In this document: piece after piece, positions 5,652-51,858 of the stretch
Position numbering within the stretch: the stretch's first letter is position 1
Layout: each line of letters starts with the position of its first letter
Assembly (NCBI GenBank): GCA_000493945.1
Contig: AWNW01000005.1
Location: 7,668 to 71,667, forward strand
DNA length: 64,000 bases
Reading direction: 5' to 3'
Source: Candidatus Hydrogenedens terephthalaticus JGI OTU-1
Lineage (GTDB): Bacteria; Hydrogenedentota; Hydrogenedentia; Hydrogenedentales; Hydrogenedentaceae
The notes under the pieces: model-generated
What the model was told of the DNA's origin: nothing
Database searches by the model: none
Seen by the model: only the letters and a program-made list of their open reading frames with translations
Program-made: the position numbers and the translations under genes

Positions 5652-7187
5652 ATGTCGGTAGATAATCACAAAGATAAGAATGCGGGGCGTGTATCTTCTG
5701 AAGATAAGGAAGTATGGTATAAAAGTCCCGCATTACGGTTCGTTGTATTTTTTATAATTGTAGTTGTTAGTTTCTTAACAGCATATCGTTATTTAATTCA
5801 TACAACATGGAACGACCGCTATCTTTTTACATTAGCCAAAAATACATGTTGGGTATTGAATAAAGTAGGCGATAATGCAACATTAGAAGGTCTTCCACAG
5901 AGTATATCCCCTGAGGAATGCAGAGCGTGGTTATCAGCCTGGGCGAGGGGTGCAAACCAGCCTGCTCCGGAAGATTATATTAATGCCAGTAAGGAGCCTT
6001 TAACGCCATGGGAACAGTGGTCGTATCGTGCTCAGAAGGCGAGGAAACAAGGGGTTCAAATTAAGTTAGGTCCACGCGTTGTATTTGTTTTAAAGGAAGG
6101 TTTACTATCCAAAATAACCGTACTGGAAGATAAAATAAAGGAATTAAATCGCAATCTGACTTTGTCGGAGCCCGAAAAAGCGAGCCTGTTGGCAATGTAT
6201 AATACAGAGTTACAAGCATTAAGACTACAGTATGCAGAAGCCCAAAAAAATCCCAAAGACAATCGGCGGGTCAGTGGATATATATTTCCGTTTATTATTA
6301 TTTCGGAATGTGGTGCGATAGAGATTATGGCGATATTTTTCGCTGCGGTAATTGCATATCCGACACTTTTTCGAAAAAAGTTATTGGGGATAGCTGTTGG
6401 GATACCTTTAATGTATTTTGTTAATATTTTTCGTTTATCTTTTTTGGCGATTGTAGGGGCATTAAACGCAGGGGGGAAATGGTTTGAATTTTTACATTAT
6501 TATGTTTGGCAGGCTGTATATATTGTTTTTGTGGTAGCGGTATGGCTTGCATGGATAGAGTTTGTCGTTTATGCGGAAGCAAAGGAAGGAATGTCTTTCC
6601 GAGACCGTATAATGCAGATTTTCCAGAAAAAAACTTTGGTTCCTCTATTTCAGACTTTGCTATTCTGTATAAAATTTATTCTTGTGGTTGTTCCGCTGGT
6701 ATGTATCTGGTGGGCATTGATTCCTGTGTATGGGTGGATACTTGTTCAGATATCCGGTTCTATCCTGAGATTTATAATGGGTGTGCCAATCATGGCGGGA
6801 GGAATACGGCCTTCCGGTTTCCTGAATACGGCTTCTGTAATTTATTTTGTAATACAGGGGTATGAATTTGAGAAAACATCGCCTATTGCATTGTTAATAA
6901 CCAATCTACCTCCTTTTATTTCGCTGATGTTGATTACGCGTATATCATGGATAAGTCGTTTGAAAAAGATATTATGGGGTGTAGGTATAATTATGTTGGG
7001 TCATATTCTTTTTATCGTTATAGTGCTTCGTTATCAGGAAGTATTAAAGGCATATAGTGAATTACCTATGGCGGTAATTCAGTTCTATCTTACGATGCCA
7101 TTTATGTTATGGATAGCCATGGTATTTCGTGAGCGATTTTTAAATCGTTCTGCTAACAATCTCTCTCCCAATAAGAAACAGGCATAA
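5652..7187 (+). CDS. Exosortase/archaeosortase-family polytopic membrane protein with an atypical architecture
   Basis: 511 aa. The segment GYIFPFIIISEC(220)GAIEIM...YFVN(258)IFR(261)LSFLAIVG...FEFLH(282)YY reproduces the family pattern of a hydrophobic run, Cys, about 40 aa, NxxR, then His. A single N-terminal TM helix is followed by a roughly 160-aa soluble or coiled-coil insert before the Cys helix. About 200 aa of multi-TM C-terminal region is additional. Confidence 0.55.
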   Translation: MSVDNHKDKNAGRVSSEDKEVWYKSPALRFVVFFIIVVVSFLTAYRYLIHTTWNDRYLFTLAKNTCWVLNKVGDNATLEGLPQSISPEECRAWLSAWARGANQPAPEDYINASKEPLTPWEQWSYRAQKARKQGVQIKLGPRVVFVLKEGLLSKITVLEDKIKELNRNLTLSEPEKASLLAMYNTELQALRLQYAEAQKNPKDNRRVSGYIFPFIIISECGAIEIMAIFFAAVIAYPTLFRKKLLGIAVGIPLMYFVNIFRLSFLAIVGALNAGGKWFEFLHYYVWQAVYIVFVVAVWLAWIEFVVYAEAKEGMSFRDRIMQIFQKKTLVPLFQTLLFCIKFILVVVPLVCIWWALIPVYGWILVQISGSILRFIMGVPIMAGGIRPSGFLNTASVIYFVIQGYEFEKTSPIALLITNLPPFISLMLITRISWISRLKKILWGVGIIMLGHILFIVIVLRYQEVLKAYSELPMAVIQFYLTMPFMLWIAMVFRERFLNRSANNLSPNKKQA

Positions 7188-23581: not shown

Positions 23582-24547
23582 TTACGAAGCATAATATTTT
23601 TGTATCATAGCAATAATCTGGTTTCGTGGGGCTATTATAATATCCAGAGTACAATTCGAAGCCAATTTTAAATCTTCAAATGCTAATAAATTATAGGGAT
23701 TGGCTATTGCTACCCGAAGTGTATTTCCTCGTATTTGTAAAGGCATACATTCATGTTGTCTTGCCATTCTCTCCGGGATAACCTTTAAGGCTATAGAGTG
23801 CACAATTTCTTTTCTTAAATCTTCTATAAAGGGATAGCCACTCTGTTTTGCGAGAACCTTTGCAATCGTTATATCATCTACAAACCCTAACTTTACTAAA
23901 ACCGTTCCCAGATGCTCTTTATAACTGCTTTGTTTTTGATATACAAGAGCTTTATTTAATTGTTCTTCGGTAATTACCCCCTCTTTTAGTAAAATATCTC
24001 CAATTCGCAATTTTTCCGAATCTTCTTCTCCTTTCTTTATATCACCCGAATATTCAACACCTCGTTGGACTGCATCAATACCAGAAATCAAACCATGGAC
24101 CCTTTGCAGTTCTTGTAATAATTCCTCCTCAGAAACCATTTTCTTGTGTGATTGAGAAGAAACCGGTGACATTGAAATAGTATCCTCGGGAAGTCTTTCT
24201 ATCATCGTTACTGTTCGGTCAAAAGCGTCTTCAAAGGCAATTATCGCTGTATAACAATGGGCTAATGCTGAACGAATCTCACGAAGCTGGTTTAGAGTTC
24301 TTCTTTGTAGTAAAAATTGTTCCTCTCGAGTGGTTGTCTTTGAAAAAGATTCTTGAATCCTCTGAAGATATGTATTCAGGCTCTTGCGATTTCTTAGAAG
24401 CATTCGTAATCGGGGGAGTTTATCTTTTAAACGGTCTATTATATTAGAAAAACTAAGAGAAATATCTCCATAATATTTTTTCCACTCAATAATCTCTTTC
24501 TCAATGGCTTCCAACGGGTCATTATTTTCAGGTTCATTGTAAAGCAA
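23582..24547 (-). CDS. Coiled-coil protein with a C-terminal T2SS-E N-terminal (MshEN-type) domain and no ATPase domain
   Basis: Residues 181-204 (RIGDILLKEGVITEEQLNKALVYQ) and 212-235 (HLGTVLVKLGFVDDITIAKVLAKQ) both fit the MshEN c-di-GMP-binding motif RLGxxLLxxGLLxxxxLxxxLxxQ. The rest of the GspE_N fold follows (PFIEDL...IPERMARQHECMPL...LRVAIANP). Confidence 0.7.
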   Translation of the reverse strand: MLYNEPENNDPLEAIEKEIIEWKKYYGDISLSFSNIIDRLKDKLPRLRMLLRNRKSLNTYLQRIQESFSKTTTREEQFLLQRRTLNQLREIRSALAHCYTAIIAFEDAFDRTVTMIERLPEDTISMSPVSSQSHKKMVSEEELLQELQRVHGLISGIDAVQRGVEYSGDIKKGEEDSEKLRIGDILLKEGVITEEQLNKALVYQKQSSYKEHLGTVLVKLGFVDDITIAKVLAKQSGYPFIEDLRKEIVHSIALKVIPERMARQHECMPLQIRGNTLRVAIANPYNLLAFEDLKLASNCTLDIIIAPRNQIIAMIQKYYAS

Positions 24548-34653: not shown

Positions 34654-35670
34654 TTATGTAACGACAAACAAAGACATTATGTTAGCAACAGCCTCATTAA
34701 CAGGGGCTTTGGTCGGATAGCGAATAAATTCGCAATGACCATCCAGATATAGCACATTGCAACCACCGGGAATATGATTGAAAAACACAGCAGTGCCTGA
34801 TGTGCCTAATTGGTCCAACATAATAAAAATTTCACTTTGTGCTTTGGATGAAGCCGCCGGATTATTAATATCTGTAATTAGAAATCTTTCAATACCTTCA
34901 CGCAAACGATACAATGTATTTCCACCTCCATTTCCTTCACCTATCATGTAAGTACCCGTTACATCGTTGTCTGCAGTACGAGCAACTATACTGGGATCAG
35001 GTCCTGGCGGACTTGTTAAGGAAGCAACCACACCCGGAGTAGAGATTAGTTGAAGAATGGCAAAAGGCAATTGTTTGGGAACAATTGTAGTATTATTTAA
35101 ATTCGGGGCATTTGCACCTAATGTCTGAACAATTAATTGGAGACTTGGTATTGAACCAACTGATGTTAACTGATCAGGATTATCTCCTAAACGGTCAAAT
35201 ACCCAACCGAAATATGCATAACTCGCATCAATAACAGACACACCTTCATCCCATCTCAAATAATGTCCAATATGATAGTCCTGCTCTGTTATTCCAAGAG
35301 AAGGATAACTCCTTCCTTTTAGTGAATTCACTGTATCCTGAGCATCTGAAGGACAAATAATAATTGCAGGATCTGTTAGATATTCTGGATATAATGATTT
35401 GACTCGAGGTCCTGCTGCAATGTAAGACTGCCACGATAGATCACTCTCTCGCTGTGCTACTTCTATTTGTATCGGTGGATATTTTCCCCCTGACGATTCA
35501 TTGGCATACATCTTGAAAACCAGTCCCCATTGTTTTAGATTGTTCTGACAACTGGAACGCCTTGCTGCCTCTCTCGCTCGGGCAAGGGCAGGCAACAGTA
35601 TTGCCGCTAAAATTCCAATAATGGCAATCACGACTAAAAGTTCGATGAGAGTAAAACCTTTTTTCTTCAT
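34654..35670 (-). CDS. DUF1559-type protein with a prepilin N-terminal cleavage/methylation domain (pseudopilin-like)
   Basis: [47 protein letters not shown] is the classic type IV pilin-like leader plus the DUF1559 N-terminus. The C-terminus has the H-X9-DG-like element [12 protein letters not shown]. Confidence 0.88.
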
Positions 35671-49540: not shown

Positions 49541-49801
49541 GATGGGACGGATGGAATAGATGGGACAGATGGAATAGATGGGACAGATGGGACAGATGGG
49601 ACGGATGGGACGGATGAGACGGATGAGACGGATGGGAAGGATGGGAAGGATGGGACGGATGGGAAGGATGGGACGGATGTGACAGAGGGGACGAATGGGA
49701 CGGATGGGACAGAGGGGACGAATGGGACGGATGAGACGGATGGGAAGGATGGGACAGATGGGACAGATGGGGCGAATGGGATGGATGAGGCTGAGGGGAC
49801 T
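49541..49801 (+). repeat. Tandem array of 29 copies of a 9-bp unit (consensus GATGGGACG)
   Basis: The whole array was parsed by hand into 9-mers. 22 of 29 units contain GGG, and variants include GATGGAATA, GATGAGACG, GATGGGAAG and GAGGGGACG. The array starts directly after the coaBC TGA TGA and ends 55 bp before a TGTATAAT promoter element. Confidence 0.97.
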
Positions 49802-49895: not shown

Positions 49896-50606
49896 TTGGT
49901 ATTTCAACAAAAAATTCAAAAAGATGTAGCGTTTTTTTTATTTTGTATCTCATTTGCAATCTTTTTATCCTCTGCAAGTGGAGAAGTAACAATAACTCAA
50001 CAGGTTTCTGGAAATGCAGCGTTCATATCCGATACTCACACATACTATATTCCCGGTAAATCCATTAGTATAACCATCTCTTTTGTTAATAATTCATCTG
50101 AAAATGTTCTCGCATTGGGATTGCAATGTTTTGTTCCTCAAGGATGGCAATTTCAAGGAACTTCCACTGGCACCAATGCCCCTGCTGTATACCCGCAACC
50201 GGGAAAGGTATCCGATGGAACAACACCTTTTGAGTTTGCATGGATAAATATCCCACCATTCCCTTTTGATTTTACTTTTAGTGTAAACATTCCTTCTGAT
50301 TTTCAGGGATACACTCAAATTAATTCGCAAGCCTTATATAGATACACGGGAGGGCAATTAACTTCTAATATTGCACAGACTTCATTTGAAGGAGCAGGAA
50401 CACCCCAAGAAGGAGAAGGGCAAATGGAAGGGGAAGGAGAAGGGGGAAATGATAATACAAGTTGTGCTGGACAAATTTTTAAGGGATGTTGTTCTGATAA
50501 TAAAAAAGCAACGCAACAAATAAAAGATATTCTTATTGATTTATTATTCATGTTAATTGTAATAGGGACATTAGGTATTTCAATAAGAAACAACCAAAAG
50601 GATTAA
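49896..50606 (+). CDS. Secreted beta-sandwich (Ig-like) protein with an E/G-rich linker and a Cys-containing C-terminal TM/basic tail
   Basis: Signal peptide VAFFLFCISFAIFLSSASG. The body is beta-rich (ITISFVNNSSENVLALGLQCFVPQGWQF...). The tail is QEGEGQMEGEGEGGNDNTSCAGQIFKGCCSDNKKATQQIKDILIDLLFMLIVIGTLGISIRNNQKD. TTG start. Confidence 0.6.
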   Translation: MVFQQKIQKDVAFFLFCISFAIFLSSASGEVTITQQVSGNAAFISDTHTYYIPGKSISITISFVNNSSENVLALGLQCFVPQGWQFQGTSTGTNAPAVYPQPGKVSDGTTPFEFAWINIPPFPFDFTFSVNIPSDFQGYTQINSQALYRYTGGQLTSNIAQTSFEGAGTPQEGEGQMEGEGEGGNDNTSCAGQIFKGCCSDNKKATQQIKDILIDLLFMLIVIGTLGISIRNNQKD

Positions 50607-50613
50607 TGGAATT

Positions 50614-51858
50614 GTGAAAACTCTAATTATTCATCTAATTTTTTCACTTGTTTTTATTTTACTATTTGCCCCTGTTACCTTTTCCGAAAGAATATTTTTT
50701 ATTGCTCCGGATGCCGGTATTGTTCAAGAAGTATTACCTGAAAAACTACAAAAAGCATGGTATCCTGACGGAATAACCCCTGAGGTCTTTCATACAAGTT
50801 ATATTACTTATAACATTGCTTATTCTGACCCAGTTGGTTTAGGTTTTAATGACCCCAATCATCCTAATCGCAAAAGATGTTTAGAAGCGGCTTTGACCTA
50901 TATTTCAAATATTTTCAGAACTTTCGGGACTATTGACATTCTGGTTGAGACAAGTGAATATGATGGCACAGGTGCTATTGCCTTTGCGGGAAGTTATGTT
51001 TTTGAGAATCAGGAAACATTTAGTCGTTGTTTTTCTCAATTACGGCTGTTGAATGGGACAAAACCTGTCGCTAATGTATCAGAAATTCAGTTAACTGTTG
51101 ATTTCGGACGAAATTATTATGAAGACCCTGACCATACCACACCTGCTTCCAATCAATTTGATTTGTTATCTGTGCTTATTCATGAATTCACACATGGATT
51201 CGGGTTTTTATCCTTTGTAGAACAGGATGGGAGAACCAATGTAACACCTAATGGTAAATATTTATATACTGTTTTTGACCAATTTATTTATAAAGGGGAT
51301 TTAGCCCTTTTTTCGGGAAGCCCTCCTGCATTTCAGGGCGTACCTTCAGATACTACCAGCAATCAATTGGTCTTTAAATCCATCTTTATTCAAAATTTTT
51401 TTGGGAACAGTGGACTTGCGATATATTCAAAAGACCCTTTTCTTGATGGGACAAGTTTAAATCATTGGGACCCGTTTAGAACAGGAATAACAAATGCAGT
51501 CATGAATCCCACTTATACAGCAGGAAGCACCATTCGAGAGTATTCTTTAGCAGACCTATGCGCTTTGAAATCAATCGGATATTCTAATATTCTACTTGCT
51601 GATAATGAAGGAACACAAGAAGGGGCAAAAGAAGGTATAGTTGAAGGAACACAGGAGGGTACCGCAGAAGGGGCACGGGAAGGAACCCATCATGAAGGTT
51701 TCCAAGAAGGTAACATAGAAGGAATTGACGAACCAACGGATAGTATTTGTGGGTGTGCAAAAAGTCAAAGCATTAGAAAATTTATTTTTGACCTTATTTT
51801 ACTGGGAATGGTTTTACTTCTTATCTCGCAAAAGAAATATAAAGCAGAGAATAAATAG
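50614..51858 (+). CDS. Secreted zinc metalloprotease-like protein (HExxH) with an (EGxx)n linker and the same type of C-terminal tail
   Basis: Signal peptide MKTLIIHLIFSLVFILLFAPVTFS. The zincin motif is LLSVLIHEFTHGFGF. The linker is EGTQEGAKEGIVEGTQEGTAEGAREGTHHEGFQEGNIEG. The tail is DEPTDSICGCAKSQSIRKFIFDLILLGMVLLLISQKKYKAENK. GTG start. Confidence 0.65.
   Translation: MKTLIIHLIFSLVFILLFAPVTFSERIFFIAPDAGIVQEVLPEKLQKAWYPDGITPEVFHTSYITYNIAYSDPVGLGFNDPNHPNRKRCLEAALTYISNIFRTFGTIDILVETSEYDGTGAIAFAGSYVFENQETFSRCFSQLRLLNGTKPVANVSEIQLTVDFGRNYYEDPDHTTPASNQFDLLSVLIHEFTHGFGFLSFVEQDGRTNVTPNGKYLYTVFDQFIYKGDLALFSGSPPAFQGVPSDTTSNQLVFKSIFIQNFFGNSGLAIYSKDPFLDGTSLNHWDPFRTGITNAVMNPTYTAGSTIREYSLADLCALKSIGYSNILLADNEGTQEGAKEGIVEGTQEGTAEGAREGTHHEGFQEGNIEGIDEPTDSICGCAKSQSIRKFIFDLILLGMVLLLISQKKYKAENK

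Follow-up and report, generated by a model that had tools for sequence, protein, structure and literature searches.

Two adjacent genes in a 64,000-nucleotide stretch of Candidatus Hydrogenedens terephthalaticus JGI OTU-1 DNA (assembly GCA_000493945.1, contig AWNW01000005.1, positions 7,668 to 71,667 of the forward strand; hereafter the window) encode secreted proteins with different bodies and similarly organized C-terminal tails. This arrangement raises the question of whether the tail is a sorting signal and, if so, which enzyme processes it. An earlier note on the window, made from the DNA letters and their translations, had located two adjacent secreted open reading frames (ORFs) within 49896-51858 and proposed that they end in an undescribed sorting signal. 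Both ORFs are found there: ORF A (49896-50606) and ORF B (50614-51858) run in the same direction, and the ORF B start lies 7 nucleotides past the ORF A stop. The tail is a modular signal within the genus Hydrogenedens and is probably an uncatalogued tripartite C-terminal sorting signal of Ca. Hydrogenedens. The reading as an undescribed sorting signal is well supported at genus level, and its link to an exosortase-family enzyme encoded elsewhere in the window is plausible but unproven, with a serious rival.

Architecture of the C-terminal tail

The tails of ORF A and ORF B follow the same order. An acidic EG linker leads into a Cys cluster; a polar spacer comes next, then a short helix that opens with K-x3/4-D, and last a stretch of basic residues. 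The common layout recognized in the earlier note, comprising acidic linker, Cys cluster, conserved segment and basic end, is present in full in both proteins. All four elements are conserved in the orthologues of several Hydrogenedens genomes, and the A-type tail is retained in the orthologues from loci L005, L007, L018 and L023. The signature opens with a Cys pair, either CGC or GCGC, whose second Cys is nearly invariant; 8-14 polar spacer residues and Lys-x3(4)-Asp follow. The Lys precedes the Asp by 4-5 residues; the helix contributes 3 apolar residues, the Asp and then 12-15 uncharged residues, and the basic end contains 1-5 Lys/Arg. In an alignment of 18 tails the Asp is invariant and C-x-C is nearly invariant, and a tail profile scores its own source proteins at 57-79 bits. 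CGC or GCGC occurs in 18 of the 19 B-type tails, none of which lacks the second Cys. Counted from the last Cys, the Asp is 12 residues away in the subtype of the window's ORF B (B1), 16-18 in the 'KYLLD' subtype of other clients and 13-16 in A-type tails. Many clients have poly-Gly next to the CGC (GGGGGGCGCGGGK), whereas the B1 and A subtypes have no Gly runs.

Sequence comparison of the A and B tails yielded no significant similarity: a profile built from non-A tails scores the A tails at no more than 6.8 bits (E ~2), and the reverse test gave the same outcome. A regular expression of the architecture, written post hoc, matches 33 of the 7,092 six-frame ORFs in ~443 kb of DNA, and all 33 are A- or B-type tail ORFs. 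Removal of the Cys requirement still produced no extra matches among these ORFs. The resemblance between the two tails is thus beyond chance at the level of layout and is not demonstrable at the level of sequence; of the earlier claim that a conserved segment is common to both, the specific layout stands and the homology is not established.

The Cys and Asp residues would not be generic to C-terminal helices in Hydrogenedens, because a paralogous protease has a plain helix tail without either. This distant ORF B paralogue from the same genus (P0119/P0120, in the cluster of P0019, which includes PLA12_02725 of Ca. Hydrogenedens) ends in …SVSQGIQIFLYFLSILILGFVLLFSPRLSLHRK, with no Cys and no Asp. 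Its tail may belong to another class of anchor or sorting signal, on which the exosortase could possibly act instead.

Clients of the tail in Hydrogenedens

An exhaustive profile search of 1.84 billion cluster representatives identified five more tail proteins with unrelated passengers (cohesin-like, EF-hand and GLUG), all of which keep the order linker, GCGC, spacer, KYLLDFxFVG and basic tail. A scan of a genome collection with one narrow peptide pattern located six loci in the metagenome-assembled genome (MAG) of Ca. Hydrogenedens AMR_MDS_2428 (DAOOVZ01) and two more in another MAG. The MAG DAOOVZ01 / PLX23 contains at least 7 tail clients, a count that comes from this MAG and not from the window's own genome. 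Local hidden Markov model (HMM) searches of the loci place the tail on one of these clients, a 1,767-residue protein with GLUG, five Bact_surface_Ig-like, PASTA, HYR and dockerin domains. Two GLUG proteins of 896 and 350 residues carry it as well, as do a cohesin-like/EF-hand protein and the orthologues of A and B.

At dispersed loci and on unrelated passengers, members of the B-type tail family score 56-75 bits. Every HMM match ends at the end of its ORF, such that the tail is always at the extreme C-terminus and follows the EG linker. An N-terminal signal peptide, judged by inspection, is present wherever the N-terminus is intact (ORF A, ORF B and the clients of L014, L016 and L019). The earlier note had suggested that an HMM made from the tails and run against related genomes would find several such clients, with the tail at the extreme C-terminus and a signal peptide at the N-terminus, and the related MAG bears this out. 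The tail is not confined to the two window proteins. The prediction of a dedicated tail family holds for the related MAG and is not established for the B1 subtype of the window lineage, for which a metagenome scan gave 3 loci, all of them protease orthologues; the A subtype likewise occurs on A orthologues only.

Three side observations concern the client loci. A 32-residue ORF that directly follows the stop codon of the 896-residue client (L014 10107-10202) contains a second, degenerate tail, KYLLYVLFVGFLVSLMSGIKKHNSRD, with Tyr in place of Asp and a score of 29-34 bits; it resembles the remnant of a duplicated or swapped tail. Loci L017 and L018 belong to CAZJTZ01, titled 'uncultured Nitrospirales bacterium', and contain the Hydrogenedens A-B pair in conserved synteny together with a GLUG client, so this bin is probably mislabelled or chimeric. 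Genes for T2SS-F and T2SS-E of a type II secretion system (T2SS) lie 3-6 kb from a GLUG client (L016 5152-8125), and the window encodes an MshEN-domain protein and a DUF1559/N-methyl pseudopilin (23582-24547 and 34654-35670). The envelope is of the diderm type, with OmpA, BamA and T2SS genes present, and the nearby T2SS genes are consistent with a T2SS-type export route for the tail clients.

Comparison with catalogued sorting signals

Neither the whole proteins nor their isolated tails matched any CTERM model of NCBIfam release 20 or Pfam at E<=10. Composed typical PEP-, MYXO-, GlyGly-, PGF- and Synerg-CTERM tails were used as positive controls. Each control tail matched its own model above cutoff and the controls cross-matched 6 to 27 families in total, including the recent Heimdall-, PVV-, GPS-, GVDTG- and PFE-CTERM models. 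Because the control tails matched many CTERM models, the silence of the models for the Hydrogenedens tails is meaningful, and the claim that the motif lies outside the known signatures holds against these collections. The tail proteins are named 'hypothetical protein' by the Prokaryotic Genome Annotation Pipeline (PGAP), and a literature search on Hydrogenedentes with exosortase, PEP-CTERM or sorting signals found no description of the tail. The tail thereby constitutes a new family of a familiar type of sorting system, one that covers about one genus so far.

The closest known class, which the earlier note overlooked, is that of signals with an invariant Cys. MYXO-, JDVT-, Synerg- and CGP-CTERM are all four of the known invariant-Cys tripartite signals, and they are paired with CPBP/Rce1-type myxosortases (Haft 2023, bioRxiv 10.1101/2023.06.07.544157). 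MYXO-CTERM often contains GCGC and its helix lacks charged and Pro residues; the JDVT-CTERM helix contains an Asp-Pro (Haft 2023, including the Fig. 1 legend). The myxosortase MrtX has been validated experimentally (Guo, Haft & Wall 2025, PMC11980579).

The Hydrogenedens tail resembles MYXO-CTERM/MrtX (TIGR03901) in being a tripartite tag with an invariant Cys, often as GCGC, on many dispersed clients with unrelated passengers in a diderm host with a T2SS, and the MYXO enzyme is not expected beside its clients. However, TIGR03901 (cutoff 20 bits, E<=10) has no match to the tail, whereas the control tail scored 32.3 bits. The Hydrogenedens tail has an invariant Asp inside the hydrophobic stretch, where MYXO-CTERM has no charge. 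Its Cys lies 12-18 residues upstream of the Asp and not at the helix boundary, and its end is Lys-rich where that of MYXO-CTERM is Arg-rich; the phylum is Hydrogenedentota and not Myxococcota. With JDVT-CTERM/MrtJ (NF033191, NF033192) the tail shares a Leu-rich helix that has a conserved Asp and lies after a Cys, a likeness in which the conserved residues within the membrane would imply that an intramembrane protease docks there. The JDVT-CTERM signal has one Cys, followed by Asp-Pro at exactly 9 residues, and usually comes with one client per genome and an adjoining CPBP gene, whereas the Hydrogenedens tail usually has two Cys and lacks Pro, its spacing is 12-18, its clients number at least 7, and neither an adjacent protease nor a model match was found.

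Other systems are further removed. As in PEP-CTERM and variant exosortase systems, the same genomes encode an exosortase-family enzyme with a Cys/Arg/His triad, an acidic residue lies at the extracytoplasmic start of the helix, and many clients would correspond to one enzyme. Unlike PEP-CTERM and IPTLxxWG-CTERM (TIGR02595, TIGR04174), the tail lacks PEP, IPTL or any other Pro motif and has no match, whereas the PEP control scored 37.8 bits. GlyGly-CTERM/rhombosortase (TIGR03501) is likewise a tripartite tag on T2SS-dependent surface proteases in diderms, and some Hydrogenedens clients have a Gly-rich stretch before the motif; however, the model does not match, no rhomboid was seen, and Cys and Asp are foreign to GlyGly-CTERM. 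Assignment of the tail to the C-terminal domain of the type IX secretion system was rejected, as that domain is a ~80-residue β domain and the tail is a helix. LPXTG was rejected since the motif is absent and the host is diderm.

The exosortase-family gene

ORF 5652-7187 encodes a 511-residue protein that matches TIGR04178 with 54.7 bits (cutoff 23) over residues 214-302. It falls below every subfamily cutoff (64.8 versus 86 for XrtH, TIGR04177; 60.4 versus 150 for ArtB; 52.4 versus 170 for XrtX), with XrtH being the best subfamily resemblance. There are ~9 predicted transmembrane or hydrophobic segments, and all of 22 homologues, with identities as low as 34%, retain Cys220, Arg261 and His282. 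Judged by sequence, this is a genuine exosortase-family enzyme that looks catalytically competent. The protein consists of an N-terminal extension, the core and a C-terminal multi-transmembrane region. In another Hydrogenedentes genome (L022 10001-11538) a 329-residue 'exosortase H' and the next ORF of 183 residues together match the 511-residue protein, and ORF 5652-7187 is accordingly a gene fusion. Because its C-terminal region is a separate 183-residue gene in L022, the fusion suggests a conserved exosortase partner protein.

The long exosortase is always located beside PPDK and thiolase, a housekeeping context. It is present in the window genome, in DAOOVZ01 (contig DAOOVZ010000097), in JGI sample 3300010348 and in every tail-bearing genome checked, all from one genus-level clade. 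PLX23_07970, PLX23_07315 and PLX23_11245 belong together, which places exosortase and clients in one MAG. No PEP-CTERM-like tails were seen in the ~443 kb of DNA. The 44 kb that separate the exosortase from the A-B pair were rejected as a meaningful proximity, as this spacing is not conserved in another assembly. The earlier proposal that 5652-7187 is the cognate enzyme is thus upheld in that the gene belongs to the exosortase family and its triad is intact; the cognate role is not established, and the gene is never adjacent to a client.

Proposed mechanism and alternative explanations

In the proposed mechanism, the signal peptide would drive Sec export and the C-terminal helix would act as a stop-transfer sequence, so that the passenger, with its acidic (EGxx)n stalk, would remain periplasmic and the basic end cytoplasmic. 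The K-x3-D helix start would then serve as the docking site for a polytopic sorting enzyme of the membrane, which would remove the helix. By analogy with MYXO-CTERM and PGF-CTERM, the Cys cluster may supply or carry the new anchor by lipidation or thio-linkage, and the protein would be displayed on the diderm surface on its acidic stalk, possibly via T2SS. The most likely candidate for the enzyme is the long-form exosortase 5652-7187, which is ranked first because it is the only sorting-type enzyme seen, has no assigned subfamily or recognised signal, retains its triad, occupies a housekeeping location and is found in every tail-bearing genome checked. That the tail is a processed sorting signal, whichever enzyme acts on it, is considered quite likely from the sequence data. 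Processing by this exosortase in particular is a tentative assignment that falls short of probable. It is possible, if rather doubtful, that this tail provides the first case of an exosortase-family enzyme acting on an invariant-Cys signal. The enzyme would be a fused, long-form, XrtH-like, Hydrogenedentota-specific protein that reads the proline-free K-x3-D element, with the Cys pair as the anchor point.

Several observations weigh against the exosortase assignment. No exosortase gene adjoins a client in the contexts of P0035, P0073, P0031, P0012, P0014, P0021, P0025 and P0023 (several clients are at contig ends), and in JGI sample 3300010348 the exosortase and the A-B pair lie on different contigs. 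Full-length exosortase homologues (42-49% identity) occur in other Hydrogenedentes lineages without a detected tail, the co-occurrence of exosortase and tail covers one genus-level clade, and the ~443 kb of DNA is biased towards tail loci. To our knowledge, a conserved Pro is common to the exosortase and archaeosortase signals (PEP, PGF, VPXXXP and IPTL) and an invariant Cys occurs in none of them, whereas the Hydrogenedens tail has an invariant Cys and no conserved Pro. All four known invariant-Cys signals, by comparison, use CPBP proteases (Haft 2023). In the corresponding alternative, the tail would be a new member of the invariant-Cys class, in which the Cys is lipid-modified first and a CPBP/Rce1-type myxosortase, docking on the Asp-containing helix, then cleaves distal to the last Cys; the T2SS would move the protein to the surface and the window exosortase would serve some other signal. 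This alternative is doubtful and yet a serious contender. The GCGC/CGC resembles the frequent GCGC of MYXO-CTERM and the helix Asp recalls the Asp-Pro of JDVT-CTERM, both from a class with uniform CPBP pairing and an experimentally validated member in MrtX (PMC11980579). The linker and tail weakly match models of MYXO-CTERM-anchored/myxosortase-dependent families (13-20 bits), housekeeping myxosortases are not expected beside their clients, and the Cys-less helix tail of Hydrogenedens could be the true exosortase substrate. The spacing of JDVT-CTERM appears in P0012 (L008 3768-5318), the closest outgroup protease (43% identity), which carries a choice-of-anchor D domain and ends in CNCGKTAPGLPDPGQVFLG…HRYHFRV, with an Asp-Pro exactly 9 residues past the second Cys; the JDVT-CTERM model NF033191 does not match P0012 and no CPBP gene adjoins it.

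Against a CPBP enzyme, the MYXO-, JDVT-, Synerg- and CGP-CTERM models are silent at E<=10 although control tails cross-match readily, and the tail Cys stands 12-18 residues before the Asp with charged residues between, a greater distance from the helix than the four known signals show. No CPBP gene was found in the window or the 443 kb of loci, which is weak evidence as the expected count is well below 1. Pfam scans of the multi-transmembrane ORFs in this DNA identified MreD, RodA, PMT, Na/H antiporter, T2SS-F, FecCD and others, with no CPBP and no rhomboid; a match to a CPBP motif expression at L017 9720-11033 was a false positive that reads as an M28-like aminopeptidase.

An enzyme may also be dispensable: the tail could be an ordinary type-I anchor retained in the inner membrane, in which the Lys, Asp and Gly positions would serve helix-helix association or retention and the Cys pair would form a disulfide or bind metal. 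In favour of this reading, the helix is kept as a unit with its passenger family, B1 on protease orthologues and A on A orthologues. A Lys at position i and an Asp at i+4 could in addition form an intrahelical salt bridge compatible with stable insertion. However, the KYLLD-type tail is carried by unrelated giant adhesin-like proteins (GLUG, Ig, PASTA, dockerin), implying display across the outer membrane, the uncharged run past the Asp is only 12-15 residues long, and all tripartite C-terminal classes studied by experiment to date are cleaved (LPXTG, PGF-, GlyGly- and MYXO-CTERM; Haft 2023, PMC11980579). A retained anchor is thus considered unlikely. Still less probable is processing by another enzyme, either a rhombosortase-like rhomboid or a member of an undescribed family. 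The poly-Gly around the CGC of many KYLLD-subtype clients would suit a rhombosortase, and orphan signals without a known enzyme exist, such as WGxxGxxG-CTERM; on the other hand, the GlyGly-CTERM model does not match, the DNA of the window and loci encodes no rhomboid, and two of the subtypes lack Gly runs. That there is no system at all, the two window tails being alike by chance, composition or local paralogy, is very improbable and already largely refuted. Cross-profile scores between A and B are not significant, the genes lie side by side and an Ig module shuffles between them, but the B-type tails reach their high scores on unrelated passengers at dispersed loci and the layout expression captures both types with zero false positives in the 7,092 ORFs.

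The gene pair and its protein bodies

The A-B pair sits between coaBC and serA in every Hydrogenedens genome examined, and genes identical to the window pair are present in the single-cell assemblies GCA_000380785.1 and GCA_000405125.1. The ORF A start codon is TTG, preceded by an extended -10 element (TGTATAAT) and an AAGGA ribosome-binding site, and no terminator-like sites were found between or after the two ORFs. The 358-bp intergenic region between coaBC and ORF A is filled by 27.4 copies of the 9-bp repeat GATGGGACG (82% matches). In L032 and L005 the orthologous spacers measure only 49-72 bp, so the array is a strain-specific expansion; it could influence expression. The features of the window are listed in Table 1.

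Table 1 Features of the window that bear on the tail and its candidate enzyme.
Feature	Position (nt)	Strand	Details
Long-form exosortase/archaeosortase-family protein, 511 residues	5652..7187	+	Core residues 212-306 (nt 6285-6569); candidate sorting enzyme
Exosortase-family catalytic residues		+	Cys220 nt 6309-6311; Arg261 nt 6432-6434; His282 nt 6495-6497
9-bp tandem repeat GATGGGACG	49541..49787	.	Fills coaBC-ORF A intergenic region, upstream of ORF A promoter
ORF A, 236 residues	49896..50606	+	Signal peptide residues 1-29 (nt 49896-49982); all-β body residues 30-165
ORF A EG linker, residues 166-187	50391-50456	+	Tail residues 189-236
ORF A tail	50460..50603	+	Cys cluster SCAGQIFKGCC nt 50460-50492, then polar spacer
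ORF A tail helix and end		+	Helix start KDILID nt 50523-50540; helix ILIDLLFMLIVIGTLGISI nt 50529-50585; basic end RNNQKD
ORF B, 414 residues	50614..51858	+	Signal peptide residues 1-24; HExxH zincin body; tail residues 379-414
ORF B HEFTHGFGF motif	51181-51207	+	HExxH zincin body
ORF B (EGxx)n linker, residues 331-378	51604-51747	+	
ORF B tail	51748..51855	+	CGC nt 51748-51756; spacer AKSQSIR
ORF B tail helix and end		+	Helix start KFIFD nt 51778-51792; helix FIFDLILLGMVLLLIS nt 51781-51828; basic end QKKYKAENK

The signal peptides of ORF A (MVFQQKIQKDVAFFLFCISFAIFLSSASG) and ORF B (MKTLIIHLIFSLVFILLFAPVTFS) have typical n, h and c regions when judged by inspection, in agreement with the cleavable-looking signals reported in the earlier note. 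Its statement that the two bodies are unrelated also holds, one being predicted all-β and the other an HExxH zincin. For ORF A, a single-sequence AlphaFold2 (AF2) model is all-β with a predicted local distance difference test score (pLDDT) of 51, too poor for a fold search, and a match to NEW3/NPCBM_assoc is weak and below cutoff (E=1.4e-3). Because the model is of low confidence and this match is sub-cutoff, the Ig-like fold assigned earlier to the body is plausible but not proven; its all-β nature is what the prediction retains. The ORF A-type β module shuffles among the loci. Protein P0006 (L032 10001-11725) is a protease with an inserted A-like module before the linker and tail, while a separate A gene is still located upstream of it in L032, and the A orthologue of L007 (8545-9972) contains two modules with a long (EGxx)n repeat between them.

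The identification of ORF B as a HEFTH zinc protease is supported by the HEFTHGFGF motif, with H190, E191 and H194 invariant across 17 homologues. The NF038122 metalloprotease model scores 55.1 bits, below its cutoff of 80. The AF2 model of ORF B has a pLDDT of 73, and its Foldseek matches are weak (best E=9e-3) and all zinc peptidases; a PDB sequence search gave no match. Two distant homologues, P0013 and P0016, have no helix tail and end in repeated 'LSELLRxIQFFNxGGYxC' modules, which are placed after EG linkers and an EF-hand-like segment.

Significance

C-terminal sorting tags decide which proteins many prokaryotes fix to their cell surface, and each new tag-enzyme pair, from sortase to archaeosortase, rhombosortase and myxosortase, has opened a biochemical system. 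The present tail spans about one genus so far, a narrow scope, and belongs to a familiar type of system, such that this is a solid incremental discovery and not a surprise. If the exosortase does read the Cys tail, the signal would combine two 'grammars', that of the exosortases and that of the myxosortases, which have hitherto seemed mutually exclusive. The tail also sets up a test of whether the orphan exosortase or a CPBP protease reads a signal composed of Cys and an intramembrane Asp, a question that bears on how strictly signal grammar predicts enzyme class. The tag would supply a curatable HMM with which 'hypothetical proteins' become annotated surface proteins. Next to nothing is known of the surface biology of Hydrogenedentota, an uncultured phylum of global distribution, and the tag would identify its surface proteome, including proteases and large GLUG/Ig adhesin-like proteins, directly from sequence.

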